DNA of 64,000 nucleotides from assembly GCF_058153355.1 (NCBI RefSeq), contig NZ_JBLWLY010000002.1. One strand, written 5' to 3'. Below the pieces are notes generated by a model that ran no database searches, was not told the origin of the DNA, and saw only the letters and a program-made list of their open reading frames with translations. Below are positions 6,512-47,334 of this stretch, in pieces (within the stretch, counting starts at the first letter, position 1; the number at the start of each line of letters is the position of its first letter). This DNA comes from a plasmid. A program made the position numbers and the translations under genes.

Positions 6512-7943
6512 AGAGCCAGTTTTTCCGGCCTACGGCCACTCCCCGTAAGGCGTTCTCTGCGATGTTGTTGTCGATTTCCACCCAGCCATTACTGCAGTAC
6601 ACGTTCAGTGCATCCCACTGTTTCAGCAGGTATGCGAACGCTTTTGCCGTGTCCGAGTGACGCGACAGTGTTTTCATCTGTTGCTGTATCCAGTCATACA
6701 GTGACTGCATCAGTGGCGCGGCTCTGGCTTTTCTTGCCGCCAGACGCTGTTCTGCTGAACAGCCCCGGACCTCTGCCTCGATGGCATACAGTTCACCGAT
6801 ACGCTGCAGGGCTTCCGTGGTGATGTCGGTGGGCACTCTTGCATGCACATCGTGGATTTTTCTCCGGGCATGAGCCATACATGCGGCTTCCGTTATTCTG
6901 CCGGATTCGTACAACGCCCGGTAACCACCGTAAGCATCGGCCTGAAGCACTCCGCTGTAACCGGCCAGATGATTCTGTGGATGGATACCTTTCCGGTCCG
7001 GGCTGTACGCGAACCAGACCGCCGGAGGCATTTCCGAACCGGCATTCCTGTCATCCCGGACATACGTCCAGATATATCCTGTTTTCGCCTTCTTCCTGCT
7101 CGGTGCCAGCACTTTTACTGGTGTGTCATCAGTGTGAACCTTGCGGGTGTTCATCACATAACGGTACAGGGCATCATTCAGCGGAGTCATTAACTGGCAG
7201 CACGCGTCAACCCAGTTGGAGAGTAACGTACGGCTCAGTTCGACCCCCTGACGGGCAAAGATTTCACTCTGACGATACAGTGGCAGGTGTTCGCAGTATT
7301 TTCCCGTTAACACGCGGGCAAGTAACCCCGGGCCCGCGATACCACGCTCTATCGGACGGGACGGTGCCGGAGCTTCAACGATGCAGTCACATTTTGTACA
7401 GGCTTTTTTTACCCGTTCTGTGCGGATCACTTTCAGAGCGCTGCTCACCAGTTCCAGTTGTTCTGCGCTGACTTCCCCCAGATAATCCAGCTCACCGCCA
7501 CACTCCGGGCAACAGCTTTCTTCTGGCTCCAGGCGATTTATTTCGCGGGGCAGATGCTCCGGTAACGGGCGACGATGACGAGACTGTCGTAACTGGCGGG
7601 GAACCCGGAACTCCACCTTGCAGGAGTTTGCACTGACAGTTGTCTGAGTAGATAGAGACGGAGTAAGAGCCGCCACCGGTTCTTTCTGCTCATCCGGCGT
7701 TATCTCCACAGGTAATAATTCAACGCCAGCGTCAGAAGGGGTTGTTACCGGAAGACGCCGTGATATACGCCCTTCGTTTTGCCAGAGTCTGAGCCATTTG
7801 AAAATAACATTATCATTAACGCCATTTTCTCGTGCAATCTGGGCCACACAAGCTCCGGGTTGTGATGCCAGTTCAACCATACGAAGTTTGAATTCATTCG
7901 AATGCTTTTTACGAGGTTCTTTTCGCCAGTCCTGTAATTCCAT
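6512..7943 (-). pseudogene. IS66 orfA-tnpC in-frame fusion, interrupted at 3' end by the intron
   Basis: N-terminus matches orfA of copy at 25452, then jumps at [19 protein letters not shown] into the middle of tnpC; tnpB absent; downstream tnpC exon at 4506..4686. Confidence 0.7.
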
Positions 7944-8701: not shown

Positions 8702-9721
8702 ATGAAATATACACCGGTTGGCGTTGATATCGCAAAACATCTGATTCAGGTTCACTTCATTGATGAGAACACAGGTGAAGTGGTGGATAAGCAACTTCGC
8801 GGCAGAGATTTTCTTGAATATTTCAGCAACCGGGAACCCTGCCTGATTGGTATGGAGGCCTGTGGAGGCTCTCAGCACTGGGCACGGGAGCTGACAAAGC
8901 TGGGGCATAAAGTCCGCTTGTTACAGGCCCGCTTCGTTAAGGCATTCGTCATGGGAAACAAGAACGACGTGATGGATGCCCGGGCTATCTGGATGGCGGT
9001 TCAGCAGCCCGGTAAAGAAATTGCCGTCAAAACAGAAGAACAGCAGTCGGTACTGGTTCTGCATCGTACCCGCATGCAACTGGTGAAGTTCCGGACCGCA
9101 CAAATTAACGCCCTACACGGGACGTTACTGGAGTTTGGTGAAACCATCCACAAAGGTCGGGCAGCGATGGAGCGGGAGTTCCCAGAAGCACTGGAACGAA
9201 TGAAAGAGAGACTGCCACCGTATCTCATCACGGTACTGGAAAACCAGTATAAGCGGTTGAATGAGCTGGACTCCCTGATAGAAGACATCGAAAAACAGCT
9301 TGCCAGCGTGGCGAAACAGAATGAGACCTGTAAGCGGTTGCTGGATATTTCTGGCGTTGGGCCACTTATTGCGACGGCAGCGGTGGCCACCATGGGGGAA
9401 GCATCAGCGTTTAAATCAGGGCGAGAGTTCGCGGCTTATGTTGGTCTGGTGCCCAAACAGACTGGCTCAGGAGGGAAAATCCGCCTGCTGGGGATAAGCA
9501 AACGTGGTGATACATATCTGCGAACCCTGTTTATTCATGGCGCAAGGGCGGCAGCATTACTGACCAAAGAACCTGGTCCGTGGATAACCGAACTGAAAAA
9601 ACGTCGTCCAGCCAGTGTGGCTATCGTCGCCATGGCAAACAAGCTGGCACGAACAGTATGGGCGATAGCTGCCCATGACCGTAAGTATGACAGGAACCAT
9701 GTCAGTATCAGACCATATTAA
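8702..9721 (+). CDS. IS110-family transposase
   Basis: 339 aa with N-terminal GVDIAKH and typical IS110 C-terminal region (VAMANKLARTVWAI). Confidence 0.8.
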   Translation: MKYTPVGVDIAKHLIQVHFIDENTGEVVDKQLRGRDFLEYFSNREPCLIGMEACGGSQHWARELTKLGHKVRLLQARFVKAFVMGNKNDVMDARAIWMAVQQPGKEIAVKTEEQQSVLVLHRTRMQLVKFRTAQINALHGTLLEFGETIHKGRAAMEREFPEALERMKERLPPYLITVLENQYKRLNELDSLIEDIEKQLASVAKQNETCKRLLDISGVGPLIATAAVATMGEASAFKSGREFAAYVGLVPKQTGSGGKIRLLGISKRGDTYLRTLFIHGARAAALLTKEPGPWITELKKRRPASVAIVAMANKLARTVWAIAAHDRKYDRNHVSIRPY

Positions 9722-30156: not shown

Positions 30157-31503
<1,347 letters not shown>

Positions 31504-31511
31504 AGAGGGAT

Positions 31512-31860
31512 GTATCAGCAGTGACTGAAGGTTGACCTGCTGAAGTGCGAGCTGTGCGGAGGTCAGATGCGGTTTACGGGGCTGAAGAGGGGTTACCGTC
31601 TGGCAGAGCAGGTTATGATGCATGAGCCGCTGGCACGAATGCGGTGGTGCGGCTGAGCGCCGCAGAGGGGAAGTTGCGTCCATGTTGAGGGGAACGGAGC
31701 AAAAAACCATCAGAGATATATTGAATCAATCAATGTAAGCAATATCAACTGTCTATACCAATTACGTGATGATCAGGTCGTGTTGAATAAACGCGCATTC
31801 TTCGGTGCTTTTCTAATCTTTTGGGGATTTAAGTTCCTGTCGATGAACTGCTGGCGCTGC
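31512..31860. repeat. second copy of the 350-bp IS-derived segment at 848..1200
   Basis: near-identical sequence; here flanked by an IS66 fragment and an IS1 fragment. Confidence 0.7.
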
Positions 31861-31880: not shown

Positions 31881-32096
31881 ATGTTGACCACTGACGAATG
31901 GGGTAGTTACACCAGAGAGTTACCGAAGGAGAAGTATCTGACTGGTAAGATTTTTACTCAGCGCATTGAGCGCAACAATCTGCCCCTGAGAACCCGAATC
32001 AAACGCCTGGCTCGCAGAACCATCTGTTTCTCTCGCTCTGTAAAATTTCATGAAAAAGTTATCGGTGCTTTTATCGAAAAACATATGTTCTACTAA
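31881..32096 (+). pseudogene. IS1 InsB C-terminal fragment
   Basis: 71-aa ORF with InsB-like KIFTQRIERNNLPLRTRIKRLARR...HEKVIGAF; IS1-like end ggtgatgact (complement) at 32101..32110. Confidence 0.65.
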
Positions 32097-32490: not shown

Positions 32491-33033
32491 GTGAGTATTA
32501 AATATATTGTGTTTATCTCTGCTTTATTAATTTCCAATACGGGAAAGGGGGGCGAACAGCGAGTTGTTTTCAATGTGGATATTGTAGGTTCTGCCTGTCA
32601 TGTGGTGGTGGATGCGGACGGTTTCGGCAACAGTGGCCGACTGATATTCGGGACTTACCGTAAATCCACTGGCGCACCTGTATTGCCACGTGACTTCGTT
32701 GTGCGCTTGTATGAGTCCGGCGCTACGGTTCAAGGGTGTTCAGCCTTTCGAGCGGGGCAGGTCGCAACTCTGGATTTTGGTAACCCGGGCCAGCTGGACG
32801 CAAAGGGAGTGGTCACTCGCGGTGCTGGTGATGGTATTCGCGTGGATGTACGGGCGGTGGATACACAGGCGGATTATCGCGGACGTCTGACTCAGGACAG
32901 TCATTCGGTGAATTACCCGGTGGAGTTTGCTGTTAAGGGACAGTTCCGTTTTCGTGCACAGCCGGTGTTTCCGGTGAACGTGAAGGCAGGGGAATACACA
33001 GGGGCGCTGACCTTTGTGGTCACGTATCAGTAA
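32491..33033 (+). CDS. K88/F4-type minor fimbrial subunit (FaeC-like position)
   Basis: 180-aa ORF immediately upstream of the usher gene; AT-rich promoter region upstream. Confidence 0.55.
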
Positions 33034-33044
33034 CAGAGGAAAGT

Positions 33045-35480
33045 GTGTGTGCAGGAAAGAAGGGGGCAGAGCTGGTTTTGTTCTTGTTTTTTCGTCGGGC
33101 CGCGCTTGCTGTATCAGTCGCTTTCGCCAGTGCCACAGGTGTTGCAGGTGAAAAACTGGATATGTCCTTTATTCGGGGTGGTGCCGGGATTAATCCGGAA
33201 GTCTGGGCAGCGCTGAACGGCAGCTATGCACCGGGACGTTATTTGGTTGACCTGTCCCTGAACGGGAAGGAAGCCGGGAAACAGATACTGGATGTGACAC
33301 CACAGGACAGTGATGAACTGTGCCTGACAGAGGCATGGCTGACGAAGGCCGGGATTTACGTCAGTGCAGATTACTTTCGTGAGGGATATGACGCCACACG
33401 GCAGTGTTATGTGCTGACAAAAGCGCCGTCAGTGAAGGTGGATTTTGATGTTTCCACTCAGAGTCTGGCGCTGTCCCTTCCCCAGAAGGGGCTGGTGAAG
33501 ATGCCGGAGAACGTGGACTGGGATTACGGGACTGGTGCATTTCGCGTGAACTATAACGCGAACGCCAACACCGGCCGGAATAACACCTCGACCTTTGGCT
33601 CGGCAGATCTGAAGGTTAATATTGGGCACTGGGTGGTGAGTTCTTCTGCCTCAGCCAGCGGTGGTGACAGCGGGGATAACTCCGCCACGATAAACGCGTT
33701 CACGGCCACCCGGGCCATCCGCGCACTGAGTGCGGACCTGACGGTCGGGAAAACATCCACCGGGAGCAGTCTGCTGGGCAGTACGGGAACGTACGGAGTG
33801 TCGCTGAGCCGGAACAACAGCATGAAGCCGGGCAATCTGGGGTATACCCCGGTGTTCAGCGGCATTGCGAACGGGGCGTCGAGGGTGACACTGACACAGA
33901 ACGGGCGGTTGCTGCATTCGGAGATGGTGCCGGCAGGTCCGTTCTCCATCACGGATGTGCCGCTGTACACCAGTGGGGATGTGACCATGAAAATCACCGG
34001 CGAGGACGGTCGTGAGCAGACTCAGGTCTTCCCGTTGTCGGTGATGGCCGGGCAGTTAAGCCCGGGACAACACGAGTTCAGCGTGGCAGTCGGTTTGCCT
34101 GACGATGACAGTGACCTGAAAGGCGGCGTGTTTGCGGCGTCATACGGTTACGGTCTGGATGGACTGACGCTGCGCACCGGGGGCGTGTTTAACCGGGACT
34201 GGCAGGGTATTAGCGCCGGGGCTGTCCTGGGGCTGAGTTATCTGGGGGCAGTGTCTGCTGACGGGGCTTATGCCATGGCGAAATACCGTGACGGCAGCCG
34301 CAGCGGAAATAAGGTGCAGTTATCCTGGAGTAAACAACTGGAGATGACGAACACCGGACTGCGGGTGAGCTGGTCACGGCAGAGTGAGGAATATGAGGAC
34401 ATGTCCTCCTTTGACCCGACAGAGCTGTGGTCGCAGTCAAATCATGGTCGCCGGCCGAAGGATGAATGGAATGCCGGTATCAGTCAGTCGGTGGGGGGGC
34501 TGTTCAGTCTGTCGGTGTCCGGCTGGCAGCGGAGTTATTACCCGGCACAGATGACGGGCCGTTATCGGTACAGCGATGACAATGGTCTGGACACAGGGAT
34601 TACCGGTACCCTGAGCACACAGATTAAGGGCGTCAGTCTGAATCTGGGCTGGTCCGGCTCACGGAATTCGCAGGGAGAGAATAACAGGTCGGCGTCAGCC
34701 TCTATCTCGGTGCCATTCACGCTGTTTGAGCGTCGCTACAGCAGCAGTACGTCGGTGAGTACCAGCAAAGGCGGTGGCACGGGCTTCAGCACTGGCGTGT
34801 CCGGCTCGCTGAATGACCGTTTCAGCTATGGCTTGGGCGGCGGTCGTGATAGCGGTGGTGGTGTGAGTAGTTATCTAAACGCGTCGTACAGTGGTGACCG
34901 GGCTTATCTGAATGGTGCCCTGAACCACTCACAGTCCGGCGGAACCAGTGGTTCTGTATCAGTCAGCGGTTCGGTACTGGTCGTCCCGACGGCGAAAGAC
35001 ATTATGTTCAGCCGCACGACCGGGGACACCGTGGCCGTGGTGAACGTGAAGGATACACCGGGTGTGAAGGTGACGTTCGGTGACGGACAGACTGACAGCG
35101 ACGGCAACCTGGTGGTACCGCTGAACAGCTATGACTGGAACACGGTGACGATTGATGCGGGCACACTGCCGCTGAGCACCGAACTGACGAACACCAGTCA
35201 GAAGGTGGTGCCGACGGACAAGGCGGTGGTCTGGATGCCGTTTGATGCCCTGAAAGTCAAGCGTTACCTGCTGCAGGTGAAGCAGCGTGACGGTGAGTTT
35301 GTGCCAGGGGGAACCTGGGCACGTGACAGTAAGAACACACCGCTGGGCTTTGTAGCTAACAATGGTGTGCTGATGATTAACACGGTGGATGCGCCGGGTG
35401 ATATCACCCTAGGCCAGTGCCGGATACCTGCGGCCAGACTGCAGGATACTGAGAAACTACAGGAGATTACGTGTGAGTAA
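33045..35480 (+). CDS. fimbrial outer-membrane usher (FaeD-like)
   Basis: 811-aa ORF, usher-sized, between subunit and chaperone genes. Confidence 0.85.
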   Translation: MCAGKKGAELVLFLFFRRAALAVSVAFASATGVAGEKLDMSFIRGGAGINPEVWAALNGSYAPGRYLVDLSLNGKEAGKQILDVTPQDSDELCLTEAWLTKAGIYVSADYFREGYDATRQCYVLTKAPSVKVDFDVSTQSLALSLPQKGLVKMPENVDWDYGTGAFRVNYNANANTGRNNTSTFGSADLKVNIGHWVVSSSASASGGDSGDNSATINAFTATRAIRALSADLTVGKTSTGSSLLGSTGTYGVSLSRNNSMKPGNLGYTPVFSGIANGASRVTLTQNGRLLHSEMVPAGPFSITDVPLYTSGDVTMKITGEDGREQTQVFPLSVMAGQLSPGQHEFSVAVGLPDDDSDLKGGVFAASYGYGLDGLTLRTGGVFNRDWQGISAGAVLGLSYLGAVSADGAYAMAKYRDGSRSGNKVQLSWSKQLEMTNTGLRVSWSRQSEEYEDMSSFDPTELWSQSNHGRRPKDEWNAGISQSVGGLFSLSVSGWQRSYYPAQMTGRYRYSDDNGLDTGITGTLSTQIKGVSLNLGWSGSRNSQGENNRSASASISVPFTLFERRYSSSTSVSTSKGGGTGFSTGVSGSLNDRFSYGLGGGRDSGGGVSSYLNASYSGDRAYLNGALNHSQSGGTSGSVSVSGSVLVVPTAKDIMFSRTTGDTVAVVNVKDTPGVKVTFGDGQTDSDGNLVVPLNSYDWNTVTIDAGTLPLSTELTNTSQKVVPTDKAVVWMPFDALKVKRYLLQVKQRDGEFVPGGTWARDSKNTPLGFVANNGVLMINTVDAPGDITLGQCRIPAARLQDTEKLQEITCE

Positions 35481-36255
35481 GCGTAACGCAGTAACGACGT
35501 TTTTCACTAACCAGGTGACAAAAGCACTGGGAATGACGCTGGCGCTGATGATGAGCTGTCAGAGTGCGGTGGCTTCCCTGGCGGCAGACCAGACCCGCTA
35601 TATCTTTCGCGGGGACAAGGATGCGCTGACCATCACGGTCACCAACAATGACAAGGGACGTACCTTTGGTGGTCAGGCATGGGTGGACAATATCGTGGAG
35701 AAAGACACCCGTCCGACTTTTGTGGTGACGCCGTCCTTCTTCAAGGTGAAGCCGAATGGTCAGCAGACACTGCGTATCATCATGGCCTCGGACCATCTGC
35801 CGAAGGATAAAGAGTCGGTGTACTGGCTGAACCTGCAGGATATTCCGCCGGCTCTGGAGGGCAGCGGTATTGCAGTGGCGCTGCGTACGAAACTGAAACT
35901 GTTCTATCGCCCGAAGGCACTGCTTGAAGGTCGCAAGGGGGCAGAAGAAGGCATCAGTCTGCAGAGCCGCCCGGATGGCAGGACCATGCTGGTGAACACC
36001 ACGCCATACATTTTTGCGATTGGCAGCCTGCTGGACGGAAACGGAAAGAAAATTGCCGCGGATAACGAGACGGCGCAGAAACTGCTGATGTTCATGCCGG
36101 GTGATGAAGTACAGGTGAAGGGAAATGTGGTGAAAGTGGACTCCCTGAATGATTACGGTGAACTGCAGACATGGACGATTAACCAGAAGAAATCAGCAAT
36201 ATCGTCTGCACAGAAGTCATCTGATACAGAGGGTAATTCATCTGATAAAAAATAA
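35473..36255 (+). CDS. periplasmic fimbrial chaperone (FaeE-like)
   Basis: 260 aa with signal peptide; start overlaps usher stop. Confidence 0.8.
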   Translation: MSKRNAVTTFFTNQVTKALGMTLALMMSCQSAVASLAADQTRYIFRGDKDALTITVTNNDKGRTFGGQAWVDNIVEKDTRPTFVVTPSFFKVKPNGQQTLRIIMASDHLPKDKESVYWLNLQDIPPALEGSGIAVALRTKLKLFYRPKALLEGRKGAEEGISLQSRPDGRTMLVNTTPYIFAIGSLLDGNGKKIAADNETAQKLLMFMPGDEVQVKGNVVKVDSLNDYGELQTWTINQKKSAISSAQKSSDTEGNSSDKK

Positions 36256-36289
36256 TCGCCCTCCGGCATACGGAACAGAGGGGTAATAA

Positions 36290-36781
36290 ATGAAGAAAAC
36301 AATGATGGTAGTCGCCTTGGCCCTGAGTGCACTCAGTATTCAGTCAACACTTGCCGCTGAATACAGCGAGAAAGCGCAGTATCTGGGGGTGGTGAATGGC
36401 CAGGTGGTGGGTAACAGCGTGGTGAAGGTAACCCGCACACCGACAGATCCGGTGCTGTACCGGAGTGGAGACACGACGCCTCTTCCCGACCGCCTGACCA
36501 TCCGTAATGCAGAATCCAGAGCAGCATCTGGTGGCTTGGCGTATATCACGGTGAAACAGGTGCTGCCTGATAACGGGGAAGCCCGCATCACCCTGAAGAC
36601 GGCCCTGATGGTTGATGGAAAGAAAGTGGCAATCAGCGCCAGACAGCAGGGTGAGGATATGGTGATAACTTTGCCGGAAGCACAGAAGCAGATTGAATTA
36701 AGAACGGATGCACCGGCAGAGCTGGAAGTACCGGTCAGTTACCGGGGAAATCTGCAGATAGCGCTGCAGGTGGAGGACTGA
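36290..36781 (+). CDS. minor fimbrial subunit (FaeF-like)
   Basis: 163 aa with signal peptide MKKTMMVVALALSALSIQSTLA. Confidence 0.6.
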   Translation: MKKTMMVVALALSALSIQSTLAAEYSEKAQYLGVVNGQVVGNSVVKVTRTPTDPVLYRSGDTTPLPDRLTIRNAESRAASGGLAYITVKQVLPDNGEARITLKTALMVDGKKVAISARQQGEDMVITLPEAQKQIELRTDAPAELEVPVSYRGNLQIALQVED

Positions 36782-36994
36782 GGATTCATTTCCTTTATAA
36801 ATGCAGTACATCCCGTGATTCCGGAGCGGGTCATATTGGTAAAGGGATTTACCGTCTTTTAAAACGGGAATAACGTAAAACAATTCTGAGTTAAACACTG
36901 TGTTTAATGAAATGCGGTTATTTAAATGAATCCGCAGGGGATGGTTTTGCGGTAATTCCGGGGAAATAAGGATTACTGATTCAGTTTATTATTT

Positions 36995-37819
36995 ATGAAA
37001 CGTCAAGGTGATTATTTTATGAAAAAGACTCTGATTGCACTGACTGTGGCTGCTTCTGCCGCAGTATCCGGCTCTGCTATGGCGTGGAATCCCGCTGGCC
37101 TTGGTGGCAACGGTGGCACCTTTAGCATGAGTGGTACTCTGAGCAAAGCTGCGAAAGTAGTACCGTGGGCAGTGGAAATAGGTGCTCCGGTAACAGCGCT
37201 TGATGTGACCGTTAAACCTGACCAGAAGAATGTTTTCATTCTTTTAGAAAAAGACATACCGATACTTGGCATTCGTAGCGCCCCGCAGGGTTTCATAGGG
37301 GAAAAGGGTATTGCCCCACAAATCGATTATAATAAAGCCGCTAATTTTGATTATATGGATAAGGGGAATTTACCTGCGGAAATTGATGTCACATCATCTG
37401 ATGGTAAGAAAATTGGTACTCTGGCGTTCGTAATGCGAGTTGCCTGTCAGGCCAGCGAAAAGAAGGGTGAAAGCGACGACAAGTTAAATAGTAGCATGCT
37501 ATTCGCTGGTTCAAAAGGTAAAGCTTTCTTTGGTGGAGTTGCCAAAGATGAAAAGGGTATCTGGAGTGACGCCGCTGCCTATACTTGGGCTACCCACCTT
37601 TTTAGCAGTATTGCTGACTCGTGGGATACTAAAATTCCTTACACGGCGGGCGATGCAGATGAAACCGACTTCAGTGATGGAAACAGTATTTACCGAGGTT
37701 ACTATGCATCCGGCCTTGTCAAGGGTATGCCCATGGAACTAACTCTTGATCAGACTATAACGTCTGCTACCCCAATTCCGTGGAAAGCTTCTCTGCCAAT
37801 TGTTATCTCCTACATGTAA
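36995..37819 (+). CDS. major fimbrial subunit (FaeG-like)
   Basis: N-terminus MKKTLIALTVAASAA...AWNP resembles K88 FaeG MKKTLIAL...AW; 274-aa ORF, probable start about 37020. Confidence 0.75.
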   Translation: MKRQGDYFMKKTLIALTVAASAAVSGSAMAWNPAGLGGNGGTFSMSGTLSKAAKVVPWAVEIGAPVTALDVTVKPDQKNVFILLEKDIPILGIRSAPQGFIGEKGIAPQIDYNKAANFDYMDKGNLPAEIDVTSSDGKKIGTLAFVMRVACQASEKKGESDDKLNSSMLFAGSKGKAFFGGVAKDEKGIWSDAAAYTWATHLFSSIADSWDTKIPYTAGDADETDFSDGNSIYRGYYASGLVKGMPMELTLDQTITSATPIPWKASLPIVISYM

Positions 37820-38032
37820 TTCAGCAGTGTTCAGCAGTAAGCACTTACCCGTTTACTGCTGATTAAAACTTCAGAACACAGTTTCCGGTGACCCGACCTG
37901 AATATACAGAACCGGTATGTCAGAACAGGTGTTTTTCTGTTGGAGTGTCTTGTGACGCATATTGGTTCTGTGCTTTTTTTAACAAAATTATTTTATTGAG
38001 CTGTTTTGTTTTATCCGGATAAACAGGAATGA

Positions 38033-38836
38033 ATGCCGATGAAAATAACGCATCATTATAAATTCTTCCTTTCTGCTGTTATTTTGGTAACCATATTTTA
38101 TTCGGCAGTGCCATATGCAAATATTCTTGATGGCGGCGAAATTCAGTTTAATGGCTATGTTACTGATGAAGCACCCAAATGGGCCTGGCAGATAAGTTCT
38201 CCCGACCAGACTTGGTCTGTGGATACTGCCGATGCCCGTACAGAGAACGGGCAACTGGTTTTTAATTTGCATGATAAAGGGGCTCTGCCATTTCTGGAGG
38301 GACATCTGCATGATGTGGCTGAGCGCGGTGGTCCCGGATTCACGCCATTTATTACTTTCAGCAGTAACGGACAGCCTTTTACTGTGACGGAAGGAAATGG
38401 TGCCTCAGCACAGCACTTTCGCGCCTCTGTCCCGGTGCGTGACCCGGAGACGGGGAACGTGTCGGGACAGCTTTTTTTTACCCTGAATCAGGGAATGGCG
38501 GTCAGTACCGGCAGACAGGACGACGGGGCATCCGTACCGGCTGGCATGTCGCTGGTCAGTGGACAGAGTGTGACGGATGTACAGCCGGGAAGTCTGCCAC
38601 AGGGGCTGAAAGCCCGACTCTCTTCCCTGTTACTGATGAATCAAAATTTTGGCAATGGCATGAATGCGGTGGATAACGGACAGGTTATCAACCAGGGGAT
38701 ACTGACTGACGGTCGGGTGATGGATCTGGCTGCGGCATATGCCTCTGCGGTGTCGGATTTTGAACTGCGGTTGCCGGCAGAGGGTACACCTGCAGCATGG
38801 CAGGCGGGGCTGAATGTGACGGTTACAGTACAGTGA
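38033..38836 (+). CDS. minor fimbrial subunit (FaeH-like)
   Basis: 267 aa with signal peptide; position after major subunit. Confidence 0.6.
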
Positions 38837-38865
38837 TGGTTGCAGGGATATAAGGAGAGAAGAGA

Positions 38866-39630
38866 ATGAAAAAGGTGGCGTTGTTTCTGTTTGCTGCTAG
38901 CCACCTGCCTTCCTGTGTACTGGCTTGGAACACGCCAGGAGAAAATTTCAGCGGAGAGCTTAAGCTGGAAGGCCCGGTGACCAGTACCCGTAACCCGTGG
39001 GTATGGAAAGTCGGGCAGGGAAATGAAGGTCTGGAGGTTAAACAGAGCCGCGGTGTTCGTGGCGGTGGGGAGGGGATTCAGGTCGAACTGCCGGCGATGA
39101 CCGTTTTACTGGGAAAAACCACCCTGACCACACCGGCAGGACGTGAGGGGCTTTCACCCCGGGTCAGTTATGGAAAAGGCACTGAGGGGTTTTCACTTGT
39201 ATGGACAGCGCCTGGCATGGCTGAAGTGACGCTACCTGTCACCGGAGATAATAATGCCCGGGCAGGCACATTTGTTTTCAGAATTCAGGCTGTGGGGGTG
39301 TTGCGCCATGTGCAGGGCGGACAACCGGTGTATGTTGGTATGTATGACGACCTGAATACGAATGGTTTGCCAGGTGAAAGCACTGCCATGAAGGTTTCTG
39401 ATATTCCGGGCGTTCTGCAGAAGATGTTCAGTGGGGAAGGCCCCGGCTGGCTTCAGACAATGACACTCAGTGGTTATTCAGGGGTGAGTCATTTCAGTGA
39501 TGACTTCCTGCGCCAGGTTGAAGGTGTGTATGGTGCACAGACTGTGGCTGGCAGTGGTGAATTACGGCTGAACGGCGAGATGCCGGAACACTGGAGGGTG
39601 TCACTGTCAGTAAACATTGAATATCAGTAA
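38866..39630 (+). CDS. minor fimbrial subunit (FaeI-like)
   Basis: 254 aa with signal peptide ending AWNTPGE, similar N-terminus to the major subunit. Confidence 0.6.
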   Translation: MKKVALFLFAASHLPSCVLAWNTPGENFSGELKLEGPVTSTRNPWVWKVGQGNEGLEVKQSRGVRGGGEGIQVELPAMTVLLGKTTLTTPAGREGLSPRVSYGKGTEGFSLVWTAPGMAEVTLPVTGDNNARAGTFVFRIQAVGVLRHVQGGQPVYVGMYDDLNTNGLPGESTAMKVSDIPGVLQKMFSGEGPGWLQTMTLSGYSGVSHFSDDFLRQVEGVYGAQTVAGSGELRLNGEMPEHWRVSLSVNIEYQ

Positions 39631-39953
39631 GGAGCAGGAGTGCGTTTTATAATCCGGAGATAAGGAACGTCGGTTACTGTAAGATTGGGGAGTTGTGTTG
39701 ATAGCGGGAGTGGCTGGAATAAGTGGTATACATAGATAAAAATTAAAACTATCACTATTTGAGGAGTTTTTTCCTGCTCTCCATGGGCTTTATAGCTCAC
39801 AAAAAATAGAATAATATTATTAATTATTCTGCTTTTTTATGGGCATTCCCCCTTGAAAAATGAGTTTGTGCCAGAATATTATTAATGTGTTTTTTGTGAT
39901 TTACTAATCAAGGATTGCTGAATAGCATCCAGTACTGAATATTTTGTTCAATT

Positions 39954-41180
39954 ATGTCAGGAACCATACCGAAAATCAAAACAGGTGAAAATGTTCTGTC
40001 TGCAGCCATTCAGCGCATTGAATGGCTATTTGGAACGTTTCCTTCTGTCTGCTTGTCCTTTTCTGGTGGTAAGGATTCTACCGTGCTTTTCCATCTTGTG
40101 TCCGAAGTGGCCCGCAAAAAGAGGCGTCGTTTTTCGGTATTGTTCATTGACTGGGAAGCACAATATCAATGCACCATTACGCATATTCAGAAGATGCAGA
40201 AGATGTACCTGGATGTGACGGACAGGTTTTACTGGGTGGCCCTTCCCCTGACTACGGTAAACGGTGTCTCTCAGTTTCAGCCGGAGTGGATATGCTGGGA
40301 GCCTGGTGTGACCTGGGTTCGCCATCCACCGGAATATGCTATTACGGATATGGCGTATTTTCCCTTTTACCGATATGCCATGACCTTTGAGGAATTTATC
40401 CCGGCGTTTTCCTCCTGGTTTGCCAGGGATAAATACCTGGTGGCTGTTCTGACCGGAGTCCGGGCAGATGAGTCCCTCAACCGCTTTATGGGACTGGTAT
40501 CCCGTCGCAAACAGAGATATGCCGATGATAAACCCTGGACTACGGCATCACCTGAAGGGTTTTATTACACCATGTATCCGTTGTATGACTGGAAAGCCCG
40601 TGATATCTGGATATATAACGCCAGAACCCGAGCTATCTACAATCCCCTGTATGACCTGATGCACCGTGCCTGTGTGCCGTTACGCAACATGCGTGTCTGT
40701 GAGCCTTTTGGTCCTGAACAGCGTAAGGGGCTGTGGCTTTATCATGTTCTGGAGCCGGAAACCTGGGCCAAGATGTGTGAGCGGGTGTCGGGTGCTGCCA
40801 GCGGGGCGCTTTATGCCAATGAGAGCGGTGCCTATTTTGCCCTGCGTAAGCGTATCACGAAGCCGCCTCATCATACCTGGCGTAGCTATGCGATGTTCCT
40901 GCTGGATGTGATGCCGGAAAGAACGGCAGAACATTACCGTAACAAAATTGCTGTCTACCTGCGCTGGTATCAGACGCGAGGCTTCCCGGATGACATTCCG
41001 GATGAACAGGAGAATGACCTGGGGGGCCGGGATATCCCGTCCTGGCGACGCATCTGTAAAACACTCATAAAAAATGATTTCTGGTGCCGGACCCTCTCCT
41101 TCAGTCCGAACAAAGCCCGGCACTATGAACGTTACCTGCAGCGTATGAAGGAAAGGAGGAAGGAATGGGGGATTCTGTGA
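39954..41180 (+). CDS. PAPS-reductase-family (PP-loop) protein, IbrA-like
   Basis: 408 aa with PP-loop motif SFSGGKDS near the N-terminus. Confidence 0.7.
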   Translation: MSGTIPKIKTGENVLSAAIQRIEWLFGTFPSVCLSFSGGKDSTVLFHLVSEVARKKRRRFSVLFIDWEAQYQCTITHIQKMQKMYLDVTDRFYWVALPLTTVNGVSQFQPEWICWEPGVTWVRHPPEYAITDMAYFPFYRYAMTFEEFIPAFSSWFARDKYLVAVLTGVRADESLNRFMGLVSRRKQRYADDKPWTTASPEGFYYTMYPLYDWKARDIWIYNARTRAIYNPLYDLMHRACVPLRNMRVCEPFGPEQRKGLWLYHVLEPETWAKMCERVSGAASGALYANESGAYFALRKRITKPPHHTWRSYAMFLLDVMPERTAEHYRNKIAVYLRWYQTRGFPDDIPDEQENDLGGRDIPSWRRICKTLIKNDFWCRTLSFSPNKARHYERYLQRMKERRKEWGIL

Positions 41181-41803
41181 CACCGGAGATACTTGGCAAC
41201 ATGATTCGTCAGTATTTCAGTCAGGTACGAACTGAAAAAGAGAGCATACAGGCTCTGAATCATCTGCGCAGAGTGCTTCATGAGGTCAGTCCTTTTGCAC
41301 AGGAGCCTGTGGACTGTGTGTTGTGGGTGAAAGCGGATGAGGTGGTGGCCAACGATTACAACCCTAATGTCATGGCACTAGGTGAGAAAAAACTACTGAA
41401 ACAGTCTCTGGAGAAAGATGGTTTCACACAACCGGTGGTGGTGTCAGAGGAGAAGAATCATTATCTGGTGGTGGATGGTTTTCATCGTCAGTTACTGGGG
41501 CGGGAAGCAGATACAGGAAAACGCCTGAGGGGCTGGTTGCCTGTAGTCTGTATTAATCCGGAGAGAAAGGGACAGGCCGCACGTATTGCCGCGACCATTC
41601 GACATAACCGGGCCAGGGGGAAACACCAGATCACTTTAATGTCTGATATTGTCAGGGATCTTTCACGTCTGGGCTGGACGAATGAACGTATTGGTACAGA
41701 GCTGGGAATGGACCAGGATGAAGTGCTGAGGCTGAAACAGATTAGCGGGCTGACAGAGTTGTTTCAGGAAGAGGATTTCAGCCCGGCTTGGACGGTTCGT
41801 TGA
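41165..41803 (+). CDS. ParB-like nuclease-domain protein, IbrB-like
   Basis: 212 aa with VVDGFHR (ParB/DGQHR-type motif); start overlaps upstream stop. Confidence 0.7.
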   Translation: MGDSVTPEILGNMIRQYFSQVRTEKESIQALNHLRRVLHEVSPFAQEPVDCVLWVKADEVVANDYNPNVMALGEKKLLKQSLEKDGFTQPVVVSEEKNHYLVVDGFHRQLLGREADTGKRLRGWLPVVCINPERKGQAARIAATIRHNRARGKHQITLMSDIVRDLSRLGWTNERIGTELGMDQDEVLRLKQISGLTELFQEEDFSPAWTVR

Positions 41804-42030
41804 TGCTGTTAAATATGGGCGGTATTTCTGAAAGTTGATACTTTGGGTAGAAAAAATGATACCGGAAACTATGAAGGATGTGCTTGTCAGGTGACTAGAC
41901 ACCATAGGTCTTAGGCTTTGATAACGGGATAAGATGAGCTGCTTTTCTCATACCATCAGGTGTGATGATGTCGCAGATTTACAAAATCTGATTGATTCTA
42001 AAGATGTATAAGTAAGGAAAAAGTTTTGAT

Positions 42031-42915
42031 ATGAAAAAACAGATATTTATTAATAATAAACCTCCTGTAGTCCCTTATTCAGGGGCGCACGCGAAAATAT
42101 TTAAATACATTGAAATCCCTCTGCCGTTTTTCTACTTTATCTATACATCAGGCGAACCATTCCACATGTCTGTCCAAAATACTGTTATTTATGTATCAAA
42201 ATACAATGGTATATTTATTAATAAATCAGTTCCTTTTTCTTTTTTATTTGACAGAGATATATCTGTTCTTCAAAGAAGAGATATTTGTGTTGTGCGATTT
42301 ACGTCAGAGGAGATAAGTGAACATAATGTTTTATTTGATCATGACTTTGAACGATTAAAAAAAATTTCCAAAGCTCAGCTTATATCTCCCGATTATGTTT
42401 TGATTGATTTTTCTAGTGGGGGGGAGGATGAATCCTACGCAATGTCCTGGTTAATATCTCAGTGTACTCATCAGTATACAGATAATAAAAAGACGGAGAC
42501 AGATGCTATTTACGATAAAGTGCGGAGTTCTTATTTGCTTTCATGTATTCTGCAAAAAAACGAAAATGTTGGGCTTATTCTTCATGCACCATCATTTGTT
42601 TCTGTGTCTGAAAAAATCGCCAGAATTGTGATGGCAAATTACTCCCGTAACTGGAGTACTTCCGAGTTGGCCAGTGCGGTTTTAATGAGTGAATCTTCTT
42701 TAAAAAGAAGAATGTACAAAGAGGTCGGTTCTATAAGTACATTTGTACATAAAATAAAGCTTACAGAAGCTATCAGGAAATTACGAAGGACAAATACTCC
42801 CATTTCTGTCATATCATCTGAGTTAGGTTACAGTTCACCATCGTATTTTTCTAAAGTTTTCTTTAAATATTTAAAGACATACCCTCAAAACATAAGGAAG
42901 AAAAATGGTCGGTAA
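42031..42915 (+). CDS. AraC-family transcriptional regulator (Rns/AggR-type position)
   Basis: 294 aa, low-GC gene; C-terminal region AraC-type HTH. Confidence 0.75.
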   Translation: MKKQIFINNKPPVVPYSGAHAKIFKYIEIPLPFFYFIYTSGEPFHMSVQNTVIYVSKYNGIFINKSVPFSFLFDRDISVLQRRDICVVRFTSEEISEHNVLFDHDFERLKKISKAQLISPDYVLIDFSSGGEDESYAMSWLISQCTHQYTDNKKTETDAIYDKVRSSYLLSCILQKNENVGLILHAPSFVSVSEKIARIVMANYSRNWSTSELASAVLMSESSLKRRMYKEVGSISTFVHKIKLTEAIRKLRRTNTPISVISSELGYSSPSYFSKVFFKYLKTYPQNIRKKNGR

Positions 42916-43102
42916 TGTCACCAATTAGGAGGACTTGCCGGGCCGCGTTGCAAGGATGAGCCCGCATTACGATTATTTCGTGCTCGATGGCGTACAGCTC
43001 ACCGATTAGTTTCAGTGCTTCTTCCGCTGTCGCGCTTTTGGTACTGATATATACATCGTGGACTTTGCGCCGCGCATGAGCCCAGCATCCTGCTTCCGTC
43101 AA
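42863..43102 (-). pseudogene. IS66 TnpC internal fragment
   Basis: 79-aa ORF matching [42 protein letters not shown] of copy B. Confidence 0.6.
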
Positions 43103-43144: not shown

Positions 43145-44716
43145 TTACTGAGAGCTCAGATCAACTTTCCAGGGCAACAGATCGCGTACCCGGTTTGCCG
43201 GCCAGTCCTGGATATGTTCAATGACGTAACGCAGCCACTTTTCTGGCTCCACATTGTTCAGACGGCATGTGCCGATCAGCGAGTACAACACCGCAGCATG
43301 TTCACCACCGCTGTCAGAACCCGCGAAGAGCCAGTTTTTCCGGCCTACGGCCACTCCCCGTAAGGCGTTCTCTGCGATGTTGTTGTCGATTTCCACCCAG
43401 CCATTACTGCAGTACACGTTCAGTGCATCCCACTGTTTCAGCAGGTATGCGAACGCTTTTGCCGTGTCCGAGTGACGCGACAGTGTTTTCATCTGTTGCT
43501 GTATCCAGTCATACAGTGACTGCATCAGTGGCGCGGCTCTGGCTTTTCTTGCCGCCAGACGCTGTTCTGCTGAACAGCCCCGGACCTCTGCCTCGATGGC
43601 ATACAGTTCACCGATACGCTGCAGGGCTTCCGTGGTGATGTCGGTGGGCACTCTTGCATGCACATCGTGGATTTTTCTCCGGGCATGAGCCATACATGCG
43701 GCTTCCGTTATTCTGCCGGATTCGTACAACGCCCGGTAACCACCGTAAGCATCGGCCTGAAGCACTCCGCTGTAACCGGCCAGATGATTCTGTGGATGGA
43801 TACCTTTCCGGTCCGGGCTGTACGCGAACCAGACCGCCGGAGGCATTTCCGAACCGGCGTTACGGTCATCACGAACGTAGACCCACAGCCGGGCAGTCCT
43901 TGTTTTACCGCTGCCCGGCTCCTGGACCGGAACGGGGATATCATCGGCATGGACTTTACCGGGCATCAGCACATACTGGCGCAGGATGTCATACAGCGGT
44001 TCCAGCAGTTCAGCAACAGCACCTGTCCAGCGCCCCAGTGTGGCACGGCTCAGCTCCACGCCCTGACGACGGTATATTTCTGACTGGCGGTATAACGGCA
44101 GATGGTCTGCATATTTTCCAGCGACAACATGGGCCAGAAGCCCCGCTCCGGCATAACTGCGTGCAATGGGTTTTGAAGGCACCGGAGCCTGCACGATATG
44201 GTCGCACCGGCAACAGGCCAGTTTCGGACGTTGTGTTTCGATAACCTTAAAGGCGCTGCTGATAAGCTCCAGTTGCTCTGACACATCACATCCCAGAGAA
44301 CTGAGTTCGCCACCACAGGCCGGGCAGCATTCCTCTTCCGGACGGATGACCCGGGTTTCACGGGGAAGTGAGGCAGGTAACGGTTTACGGGCTGAAGACT
44401 GGCGCAGGGGAGATGGCAGTACCGGGTCATATTGCTCACCCAGCGTTTCCGCCATTTCTTCCTGAAGAGCGCTGATTCGCTCCTGTGCTTCCTGTATCTG
44501 CCGTTCGGTTTTTGCACGAAGTTTTTCTGAGCTTTTACCGAACTGCATGCGCTGCAGTTTTGCAACCAGCGCCTTCAGCCGGTTGATTTCGGAAGCATAA
44601 GCCGCCACCCGCTGTGAGAGCAGGCGGTTGTATTTCGCCATCTGGCGGATGGTGTCCTGTTGCGTCTGCAACAGTGCCCGCAGGCGGGCATTCTCATGAG
44701 CAAGTGAGGTGTCCAT
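43145..44716 (-). CDS. IS66 TnpC transposase
   Basis: 523 aa, intact. Confidence 0.85.
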
Positions 44717-44735
44717 ATCCTCACTTTACAACGGG

Positions 44736-45083
44736 TTATATGCGGATGCCAGCGCGTTCCGTTCGTTTCGGGTGTTTCCAGTCGATGCCCTCAAGAAGCA
44801 TGGATAACTGGGCCGGAGTAAGGTGCACCTTGCCGTCACGGGTGACCGGCCAGACGAAGCGGCCCCGCTCCAGGCGTCTGGTGAAGAGGCACAGTCCGTC
44901 ACTGTCAGCCCACAACACTTTTATCTGGTCACCCCGGCGTCCGCGGAAGATGAACAGATGCCCGGAGAACGGGTCATCCTTCAGGACGTTCTGAACTTTT
45001 GAGGCCAGGCCGTTAAAGCCATTTCGCATATCGGTGATACCTGCAACCAGCCAGATACGCGAACCTGCAGGGAAAGATATCAT
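44736..45083 (-). CDS. IS66 TnpB
   Basis: 115 aa. Confidence 0.8.
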   Translation of the reverse strand: MISFPAGSRIWLVAGITDMRNGFNGLASKVQNVLKDDPFSGHLFIFRGRRGDQIKVLWADSDGLCLFTRRLERGRFVWPVTRDGKVHLTPAQLSMLLEGIDWKHPKRTERAGIRI

Positions 45084-45694
45084 CAGTGGCTACTCCCTTT
45101 TATTTCGCGGATAAGTATCTGTAATAACGCCAGCGTCAGTTTACCTTTAAGCCTGAGAGTTCCGGCCGGCAGAACCAGCTCATAGCACAGACTGTCGGAC
45201 GGTGTATTTATCTGCTCTGGTTCCTGTGCCGGAGCCGGGATTTTATTATCCGGCTCCGGCGTTAACGTCACGGGAAGTAGCGATGTTTCATGTTCGCCGG
45301 GCGGCTGCAGGCCGCCGTTACGCCAGAGATGCCGCCAGTTAAAGAGCAGGTTATCGTTGATTCCATTCTCACGAGCTATTTGTGCGACACAGGCACCGGG
45401 TAAAAGAGTTTGCTGAACAAGTCTCCATTTAAACTCCGGTGAAAATCGGTTCCGGCGGGGTTTCTCTGCTTTCACAGGCTGAGTCACGGTCGGGGTTGAA
45501 GGATATCGCCCCGGGAAAAGAGCCCGGGCCAGTTGCCCGCAGGAATATTCGCCGGAAAGAGGCCAGTCAGTGAATACCTGGTGAAATCGCCTCACCAGAG
45601 AAAAAATGGCGGTTTTGCTGACACCAGTCTGCGCAGAAATGCGCGGGTACGACAGTGACTCGTCAAATCTCAGCTGTAGCACACGCAGGATCAA
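45083..45694 (-). CDS. IS66 OrfA with unusual 90-aa N-terminal extension
   Basis: C-terminal 110 aa orfA-like ([28 protein letters not shown]); N-terminal part unlike other copies. Confidence 0.5.
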   Translation of the reverse strand: MILRVLQLRFDESLSYPRISAQTGVSKTAIFSLVRRFHQVFTDWPLSGEYSCGQLARALFPGRYPSTPTVTQPVKAEKPRRNRFSPEFKWRLVQQTLLPGACVAQIARENGINDNLLFNWRHLWRNGGLQPPGEHETSLLPVTLTPEPDNKIPAPAQEPEQINTPSDSLCYELVLPAGTLRLKGKLTLALLQILIREIKGSSH

Positions 45695-47295: not shown

Positions 47296-47334
47296 ATGAT
47301 GGGGGCTGAAAACATCAACAGAAGGAGACACATC

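Follow-up and report, generated by a model that had tools for sequence, protein, structure and literature searches.

What do two overlapping genes, one for a PP-loop enzyme and one for a ParB-like protein, do between a fimbrial operon and the gene of an AraC-family regulator? The question is raised by a 64,000-nucleotide stretch of an Escherichia coli plasmid (contig NZ_JBLWLY010000002.1 of NCBI RefSeq assembly GCF_058153355.1; hereafter the window, with position 1 as its first letter), in which an ibrA-like gene (39954-41180, + strand, 408 amino acids (aa)) is followed by an ibrB-like gene (41165-41803, + strand, 212 aa). Judged by sequence, the pair is a member of the IbrA/IbrB (YbdN/YbdM) family, an already described and annotated, very widespread and phage-derived group. 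As a tentative answer, we propose that IbrAB may be an activator made up of two proteins that is targeted to DNA, uses ATP and turns on horizontally acquired genes for surface factors, which in the window would be those of the fimbrial operon.

The IbrA/IbrB pair and its two proteins

The assignment of ibrA is based on its open reading frame (ORF), Pfam and PHROG matches and an AlphaFold2 (AF2) model, and that of ibrB on its ORF, a PHROG match, an AF2 model and Foldseek matches. The two genes overlap by 16 nucleotides (nt), with the ATG of ibrB at 41165 and the TGA stop codon of ibrA at 41178-41180, and a Shine-Dalgarno sequence for ibrB (AAGGAGG, 41153-41159, +) lies within the 3' end of ibrA. 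This position of the Shine-Dalgarno sequence, together with the overlap, indicates that ibrB is translationally coupled to ibrA. The initial annotation, made from the letters of the sequence, had described two overlapping genes with the motifs SFSGGKDS and DGFHR, and this description is borne out by the ORFs and their overlap: in the translations, the PP-loop SFSGGKDS occupies IbrA residues 35-42 (40056-40079, +) and DGFHR occupies IbrB residues 104-108 (41474-41488, +). The ratio of nonsynonymous to synonymous substitution rates (dN/dS) is 0.07-0.12 for ibrA and 0.05-0.10 for ibrB, reflecting strong purifying selection in all contexts compared, and values in this range (0.05-0.12) show that both are real genes and not chance ORFs.

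For the family assignment, the pair was compared with the copies in an island of E. coli that produces Shiga toxin (STEC), in phage PhiR5_2 and in K-12 and with RefSeq names. The window encodes a phosphoadenosine phosphosulfate (PAPS)-type PP-loop protein with a DUF3440 domain and a ParB-N-like DGxHR protein of ~210 aa with a helix-turn-helix (HTH), and the genes are co-oriented and overlap in the order ibrA-ibrB, which is also the arrangement of the K-12, STEC, Klebsiella and PhiR5_2 copies. The pair proteins are 99% identical to those encoded in the same block of the virulence plasmid pINV of enteroinvasive E. coli (EIEC) and Shigella, and IbrA and IbrB are 90% and 95% identical, respectively, to the STEC island pair. 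The E. coli phage PhiR5_2, in which two antirepressor genes precede IbrA and IbrB, has an annotated IbrB with 85% identity to that of the window, and the two window proteins are 57% and 55% identical over their full length to K-12 YbdN and YbdM. These identities, and RefSeq names that read 'phosphoadenosine phosphosulfate reductase' and 'IbrB-like domain-containing protein', uphold the initially suggested relationship to IbrAB. Of 5426 complete E. coli genomes, 2147 (~40%) contain DNA matching the pair, at 80-90% identity and for the most part on the chromosome. The ECOR-9 IbrA/IbrB genes and the O157 island and PhiR5_2 copies are the same two overlapping genes with the same order and domains, but the settings differ: the window copy lies on an IncF plasmid beside a K88-type operon and an AraC gene, whereas the STEC and PhiR5_2 copies lie in prophage-like islands by antirepressor genes or perC. 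K-12 ybdN and ybdM also overlap in the same order but form a chromosomal paralogue in a citR-ybdNM operon.

IbrAB of ECOR-9 was reportedly named in 2002, as immunoglobulin-binding regulators, in work by Sandt, Hopper and Hill (J Bacteriol) in which the overlapping ibrA and ibrB genes are said to activate jointly, and in trans, the prophage-borne eib adhesin genes. The activation of eib by ibrA/ibrB has been restated since (PMC7649339), K-12 ybdNM is repressed by the LysR-type regulator CitR (PMC9068703), and overexpression of YbdM lowers the growth rate by ~10% (PMC8764527). No biochemical study of IbrAB or YbdNM turned up in the literature searched.

IbrA is composed of a PAPS-reductase-like PP-loop domain (~residues 1-240) followed by a helical DUF3440 domain of ~170 residues at the C-terminus. 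The protein matches the Pfam families PAPS_reduct (1e-07 and 3.7e-07), PP-loop ATP_bind_3 (3e-04) and DUF3440 (2.5e-24), as well as phrog_2302, 'PAPS reductase', over residues 7-392 (4.9e-82). In the AF2 model (predicted local distance difference test (pLDDT) score 92), the first ~240 residues match CysH, the PAPS domain of flavin adenine dinucleotide (FAD) synthase, CysD and TtuA; for CysH, CysD and flavin mononucleotide (FMN) adenylyltransferase the Foldseek E values are 1e-5 to 4e-7, at 14-19% identity. These matches end at ~residue 240, and no solved-structure relative was found for the DUF3440 half; a sequence search of solved structures with the pair returned PP-loop and ParB-N fragments only.

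In all, 1767 IbrA relatives were found among 1.84 billion representative proteins, and conservation was read from 63-79 diverse full-length members. The catalytic-type PP-loop motif is intact, with G39, K40 and S42 invariant and S37, G38 and D41 conserved to at least 90% in 63 diverse homologues; elsewhere in the protein D66, E68, W121, S174, D217 and Y233 are invariant, and R170, E173, R177, D212, N230 and R247 reach at least 90%. None of the eight cysteines of IbrA is kept across 79 diverse homologues, the best preserved being C249 (Cys in 46%, Ala in 37%), and this lack of cysteine conservation makes CysH- or DndC-type sulfur chemistry unlikely. Its conserved residues and fold suggest that IbrA is active as an ATP pyrophosphatase or adenylyl-transferring enzyme, rather than as a PAPS reductase or a DndC-type sulfur transferase. 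Its N-terminal part has the fold and PP-loop in common with CysH, CysD and the eukaryotic FMN adenylyltransferase, but IbrA differs from these in the extra helical domain of 170 residues and an obligate ParB-like partner, and it has no conserved cysteine that could stand in for the catalytic one of CysH. One 631-aa homologue, P0300, carries, as judged by eye, an intein-like insertion of ~240 aa within the conserved YNxxYD motif.

For IbrB, the one Pfam match is a weak hit to ParB_N (E = 0.03), and phrog_2159, 'ParB-like', is matched at 2e-81. The PAPS-reductase and ParB-type domains that had been predicted for the two proteins are hence recovered by profile searches. The AF2 model of IbrB (pLDDT 84) matches Noc, ParB and KorB over its N-domain as well as its HTH, with E values of ~1e-6 to 1e-7 for Noc and ParB and, for KorB, a template modelling (TM) score of 0.52 at a root-mean-square deviation of 2.7 Å (Foldseek), whereas the matches to sulfiredoxin and a serine kinase are limited to a core of ~85 residues. 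In the model, IbrB is structurally nearer to ParB, Noc and KorB than to other proteins of the ParB/Srx fold. The HTH predicted from the model and from the Noc/ParB/KorB alignment spans residues ~173-201 (LGMDxDEVLRLKQISGL; 41681-41767, +), with modelled helices at residues 173-180 and 184-201.

An alignment of 28 IbrB sequences with 42-92% identity revealed the invariant motifs NxYNPN, DG, DGxHR, TxRHNxARGxH and an HTH-like LGM..E..R..Q..G. The invariant residues comprise D104, G105, H107 and R108 of DGFHR, R146, H147, N148, A150, R151 and G152 of the family-invariant RHNRARG (residues 146-152; 41600-41620, +) and G181, M182, E186, R189, Q192 and G195 of the HTH, and there is no conserved cysteine. 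Between the window plasmid and phages of unrelated hosts, IbrB identity is 42-60%. In ParB proteins, the Glu and Arg of box II are the residues of cytidine triphosphate (CTP) binding and hydrolysis. When IbrB is aligned by profile to Helicobacter pylori ParB and Bacillus subtilis Noc, NDYNPN falls over the box I sequence NPYQPR and DGFHR over the box II sequence AGERR, so that the ParB residues QPR and GERR are replaced by NPN and DGFHR. IbrB has no C-terminal dimerisation domain and stops at residue 212, right after the HTH. The layout of N-domain and HTH is common to IbrB, KorB of RK2, Noc and chromosomal ParB, but IbrB differs from all of these in its own RHNRARG motif, its PP-loop enzyme partner and the missing dimerisation domain. 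The model and the alignments place IbrB in a separate subfamily of ParB-fold proteins of the DNA-binding type and not among the partition proteins. A further DNA-binding regulator of the ParB family is VirB of Shigella.

Phage relatives of the pair

Phage loci were collected as 80 viral contigs encoding an IbrA relative, 79 of which could be scored for pairing. An IbrB-type gene adjoins the IbrA homologue in 74 of the 79, in either order and usually with an overlap. The order A to B is found in 28 loci, where the overlap is most often 4 nt, and the order B to A in ~45 loci. In the latter loci, an extra domain of 141 aa is either fused to the C-terminus of IbrB or encoded by a separate gene between B and A. 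The sequence of this domain runs IFHTWDKWECYPAGFY...NSCEHYL...MNRIAWLGQ (for example L047 3384-3809, or the C-terminal 140 aa of L055 4821-5966); neither Pfam nor PHROG has a family for it, and a search of the enterobacterial loci showed it to be missing there. Fusions of IbrA to IbrB were sought and none was found: in long IbrA homologues the added length is an extension of another kind or an intein, and the mixed members of the IbrB protein cluster are plain IbrA proteins.

An IbrB relative is encoded by 226 cultured phages, whose hosts include Flavobacterium, Mycobacterium, Streptococcus, Arthrobacter and Bacillus. The recurrent neighbours in the 80 viral loci are genes for SNF2, DEAD and DnaB helicases, exonucleases, RecT/Erf and single-stranded DNA-binding protein (SSB), and in the Arthrobacter phage Salgado the pair lies among ParB-like genes and genes for a methyltransferase, an HTH protein and a terminase. 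Judged from this gene content, the pair is an old, obligate phage gene pair tied to DNA transactions. A phage IbrA-type gene has been classed under 'host metabolism' (PMC11318856), but a sulfur-metabolism annotation of the phage genes is unsupported because the conserved cysteines are missing. Phage lambda NinC carries the annotation of a protein of the PAPS reductase family (PMC10695390).

The fimbrial locus and its plasmid

The pair was initially placed between K88-type fimbrial genes and an AraC regulator, and this position is correct. A K88/CS13-type chaperone-usher operon (32491-39630, +) precedes ibrA and consists of faeC-like, usher, chaperone, faeF, cshE-like major subunit, faeH and faeI genes, as identified from the ORFs and the RefSeq names on pINV; in the 98.5%-identical pINV block the genes are named faeD/E/F, cshE, faeH and faeI, and Pfam K88 families are found in orthologous fimbrial loci. 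The gene 3' of ibrB (42031-42915, +; 35% G+C) encodes an AraC-family regulator of 294 aa, recognized from its ORF and HilC/HilD/AraC-type HTH matches.

The order fae-ibrA-ibrB-araC recurs in two diverged loci, L008 and L009, in which AraC is 80% and 70% identical to that of the window, respectively. Identity between the window and these two loci is 89-92% for IbrA and IbrB, 77-87% for FaeH and FaeI and 70-80% for AraC. Relatives of this AraC protein are rare, with 20 in the databases, and those at 70-87% identity are always encoded 3' of a K88 operon of the same type. In three further loci, L013, L014 and L015, the fae operon and araC are present and ibrAB is missing at the junction. In L013 and L015, the alignment with window DNA runs from faeI to ~150-190 nt into ibrA and resumes just 5' of araC (blastn), and a 39-aa IbrA remnant is detected at the junction of L013 (9623-9739; tblastn). 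A late insertion of ibrAB into the locus, considered from L013-L015, was dropped after this 5' ibrA homology and the L013 remnant were found. The ibrA remnants imply that fae-ibrAB-araC is the older arrangement and the deletion the later event, and it is therefore more likely, on this sequence comparison, that the junction copy of ibrAB was lost secondarily from L013 and L015. Both loci also carry a second ibrAB copy no more than ~10 kb from the fimbrial operon (L013 1-1414; L015 13493-15482). Taken as sequence comparisons, these data support a lasting link between ibrAB and the fimbrial locus, with the pair also found in many unrelated contexts.

On plasmids, these other contexts include sites beside pseudogenised autotransporter genes, the interval from fecIRA to iroBCD in hypervirulent Klebsiella and, on another Klebsiella plasmid, a position close to iuc. 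In STEC islands, ibrAB lies 5' of perC, with iuc or Cah in the vicinity, and a further copy sits in an island of Nissle 1917. In K-12, ybdNM sits 3' of the LysR gene citR, a neighbourhood that the second ibrAB copies of L013 and L015 resemble in that they adjoin a LysR-type gene. The STEC island pair 5' of perC has been named ibrB (PMC7649339). Other settings of ibrAB, namely those with autotransporters, perC, iro, iuc and Cah, are also horizontally acquired colonisation loci.

The AT-rich intergenic region between faeI and ibrA (39631-39953, +) lacks conservation with the regions 5' of ibrAB copies elsewhere, and no shared upstream regulatory region was found among ibrAB copies across seven contexts. 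The promoter-like sequence TTGAAA-18-TATTAT at 39853-39882 is a consensus match only and is no more frequent than in shuffled sequence. Homology with ibrAB copies elsewhere extends from the ibrA ATG to ~55 nt past ibrB. In L008, L013 and L015 an ORF of 71 aa lies 3' of faeI (1857-2072, 9297-9512 and 7586-7801, respectively); 39631-39953 of the window contains no ORF of at least 60 aa at this place, though the DNA aligns. The product of the cshE-like major subunit gene (36995-37819) is 90% identical to the pINV copy and only 27-29% identical to the major subunits of L009, L013 and L015, locus variants that are otherwise 77-96% identical. This hypervariability of the major subunit points to antigenic or receptor diversification.

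The window comes from a conjugative E. coli plasmid of the IncF type with an IncFII repA, a parM backbone, ssb at 47296, psi and tra genes. Over 39600-42950 it matches pINV of EIEC, Shigella boydii and Shigella sonnei at 98.5% identity and in gene order; the window plasmid itself is not pINV and has only backbone pieces in common with it, and no osp genes occur in the stretch that was compared with pINV. The accessory block is bordered on the right by an IS66-family insertion sequence (IS) element (tnpC, tnpB, tnpA; 43145-45694, -), identified from its ORFs and the IS66 names in matching plasmids, and IS66 fragments recognized as ORFs lie to the left (30157-31535). In S. sonnei lineage 3, a deletion of ~11 kb that removes this block from pINV is reported to have IS66 at one flank (PMC12795559), and IS66 may drive both the gain and the loss of the fimbrial-ibrAB-araC block.

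On pINV, araC is broken up into two pieces, a 'hypothetical' ORF of 423 nt and an AraC fragment of 474 nt, and the window gene is full length at 294 aa. The exact intact AraC protein is found only in Logan assemblies (seven contigs), and most members of its cluster that were read are short Shigella or E. coli fragments. The window may preserve the state of the pINV locus before its decay. Immediately 5' of the first fimbrial gene lies what appears, by eye, to be an IS1-transposase-like fragment (31881-32096). No faeA/faeB-type regulator genes are present among the window ORFs 5' of the operon, so that the only candidate regulators nearby are the AraC gene downstream and possibly ibrAB.

Proposed role and competing explanations

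In the mechanism that we infer, IbrB would be the DNA-binding and nucleotide-binding subunit, by virtue of its ParB fold and HTH. IbrA and IbrB, co-produced through translational coupling, would form a complex that acts on DNA or on a DNA-bound target, and IbrA would use ATP to adenylate something at the site bound by IbrB. As a result, poorly expressed, horizontally acquired surface-factor genes would be switched on, for which the reported activation of the prophage eib adhesin genes by ibrA and ibrB serves as the model. In the window the target would be the adjacent K88/CS13-type operon, activated with or through the neighbouring AraC regulator.

Several observations weigh against such an activating role. 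A search for a conserved palindromic, parS-like site across the 80 phage loci returned only AT-rich low-complexity palindromes. The limits of homology, from the start of ibrA to ~55 nt past ibrB, imply a module without a regulatory region of its own. Synonymous distances between ibrAB copies in unrelated contexts are about the same as those between copies in the same locus type; strict co-divergence with the fimbrial genes is thus unsupported, and exchange among copies is possible. The block is also subject to decay, as ibrA is truncated by ISSfl4 on pINV of Shigella flexneri and lineage 3 of S. sonnei has lost the pINV block, known as 'ybdN, spo0j', together with fae genes (PMC12795559). Furthermore, ibrAB is present at many sites without fimbriae, including the core-like citR-ybdNM locus of K-12, and its adjacency to the operon may reflect shared IS-rich accessory DNA. 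Lastly, the position of the phage pair in replication and recombination modules, or by a methyltransferase and a terminase, fits a DNA-metabolic role equally well.

The main competing explanation, possible though in our estimate on the unlikely side, is that the pair is primarily a phage DNA-modifying or DNA-metabolic module, with IbrB as the DNA-targeting part and IbrA adenylating a base, a group in the backbone or a DNA end. Carried by a plasmid or an island, such a module would protect or mark the DNA of the element, for instance against restriction, and the eib activation and any fimbrial effects would be indirect, for instance through changed H-NS silencing or prophage derepression. This explanation is favoured by the retention of the pair across phages of many phyla, seen in both the cultured phages and the viral contigs, by its helicase, exonuclease, RecT/Erf and SSB neighbours and the methyltransferase, HTH protein and terminase of Salgado, by the enzyme-like invariant polar motifs in both proteins and by the existence of phage ParB-N domains fused to DNA methyltransferases (phrog_498 match). 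Inteins favour nucleic-acid enzymes, and the intein-like insertion in one IbrA homologue points in the same direction. However, no modification chemistry can be named for a pair without sulfur-handling cysteines or partner enzymes, and PADLOC returns only weak BrxP and DndC matches. In addition, ibrAB is kept on virulence plasmids that cannot be mobilised and on chromosomes, settings in which protection of incoming DNA helps little, and the published phenotype is gene activation.

A role for IbrAB in fimbrial expression would fall away altogether if the pair were a passenger phage remnant that serves its own or prophage purposes, such as the control of prophage genes near antirepressors, and owes its position to IS-driven assembly. 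The IS66 copies that flank the block, the tight module boundaries with upstream regions that differ by context and the presence of the pair in varied islands, in ~40% of the complete E. coli genomes, are in line with this, as are the antirepressor genes next to the closest phage copy and the persistence of the fae operon and araC without junction ibrAB in L013, L014 and L015. We consider it unlikely, since purifying selection is strong in every context compared, the same gene order is kept in diverged loci, and two of the loci without a junction copy, L013 and L015, carry another ibrAB copy nearby. Moreover, in STEC, ibrB, perC and the following gene are induced together upon epithelial cell contact (PMC7649339).

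The initial annotation had also pointed to the domain pairing of DndC with DndB, and a Dnd-like phosphorothioation module, or a sulfate-assimilation PAPS reductase acting as an auxiliary metabolic gene, was considered. The kinship stands at the superfamily level: DndC/DndB and BrxP resemble IbrAB in that a PAPS-reductase-like PP-loop protein has a DGxHR protein of the ParB/Srx fold as its partner or relative, and weak matches are obtained to DndC, BrxP, CysH and CysD models. Beyond that level it does not hold, as scores lie far under the curated cut-offs. IbrA reaches 15.5 bits against a cut-off of 290.4 bits for the DndC model TIGR03183, and 20 and 15 bits for PADLOC DndC; IbrB matches no DndB model of NCBIfam or PADLOC. 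As candidates, DndC and DndB were therefore rejected, as was CysH (33 against 254 bits for TIGR02057 and 29 against 165 bits for TIGR00434, with no conserved cysteine), and the NCBIfam and PADLOC scores for CysD are likewise far below cut-off. DndC uses cysteines for an Fe-S cluster and for sulfur transfer, CysH has a catalytic C-terminal cysteine, and adenosine phosphosulfate (APS) reductase has Fe-S ligands; the cysteines of the IbrA family offer no counterpart to the CysH residue or to the Fe-S ligands. No dndA, dndD, dndE or cysteine desulfurase genes are found in the window from 30 to 48 kb or among the recurrent neighbours in the 80 phage loci. A type 4 bacteriophage exclusion (BREX) system was rejected too, because the PADLOC match to BrxP (26 bits) covers the PP-loop region only and no PglZ, BrxC or BrxL genes lie nearby. 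In contrast to DndC/DndB and BrxP, the pair lacks conserved cysteines and DndA/D/E or BREX partners, and IbrA adds a C-terminal DUF3440 domain that has no counterpart in the solved-structure matches. A Dnd-like or sulfate-assimilation function is thus largely refuted and very improbable. That IbrB is a plasmid partition ParB and the pair serves segregation is scarcely credible despite its ParB/Noc-like fold and database entries that read ParB/Spo0J partition protein, because no ParA-type gene lies beside ibrB (its neighbours are ibrA and araC), the C-terminal dimerisation domain is absent and QPR/GERR are replaced by NPN/DGFHR, the plasmid has its own ParM system, and most ibrAB copies are chromosomal.

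The pair itself is ordinary, being annotated in thousands of genomes and present on the Shigella/EIEC virulence plasmid. What is new here is the cysteine-free character of the IbrA family, the ParB/Noc/KorB fold of IbrB, the extent of pairing in phages, the recurrence of fae-ibrAB-araC and the purifying selection on both genes. The pair travels with major virulence loci, including the fimbriae of pINV, the perC islands of STEC and iro/iuc of hypervirulent Klebsiella plasmids, and it is conserved in phages from Actinobacteria to Bacteroidetes. In the window this locus is unusually intact, as its AraC gene is full length and its fimbrial genes are complete. We speculate, while regarding it as improbable, that IbrAB could be a phage-invented nucleic-acid-modifying machine, in which a ParB-fold subunit guides a cysteine-free PP-loop enzyme that transfers adenylyl groups, and that this machine was co-opted as an epigenetic or anti-silencing switch for adhesin and virulence loci. 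If true, this would amount to a new chemistry, distinct from phosphorothioation and from known base hypermodifications, for which the fae-ibrAB-araC block of the window would be a natural test bed. A solved mechanism would explain how a PP-loop enzyme and a ParB-like protein encoded by a very common gene pair activate genes, and it would put an end to an error by which phage 'PAPS reductases' are routinely annotated as genes of sulfur metabolism.

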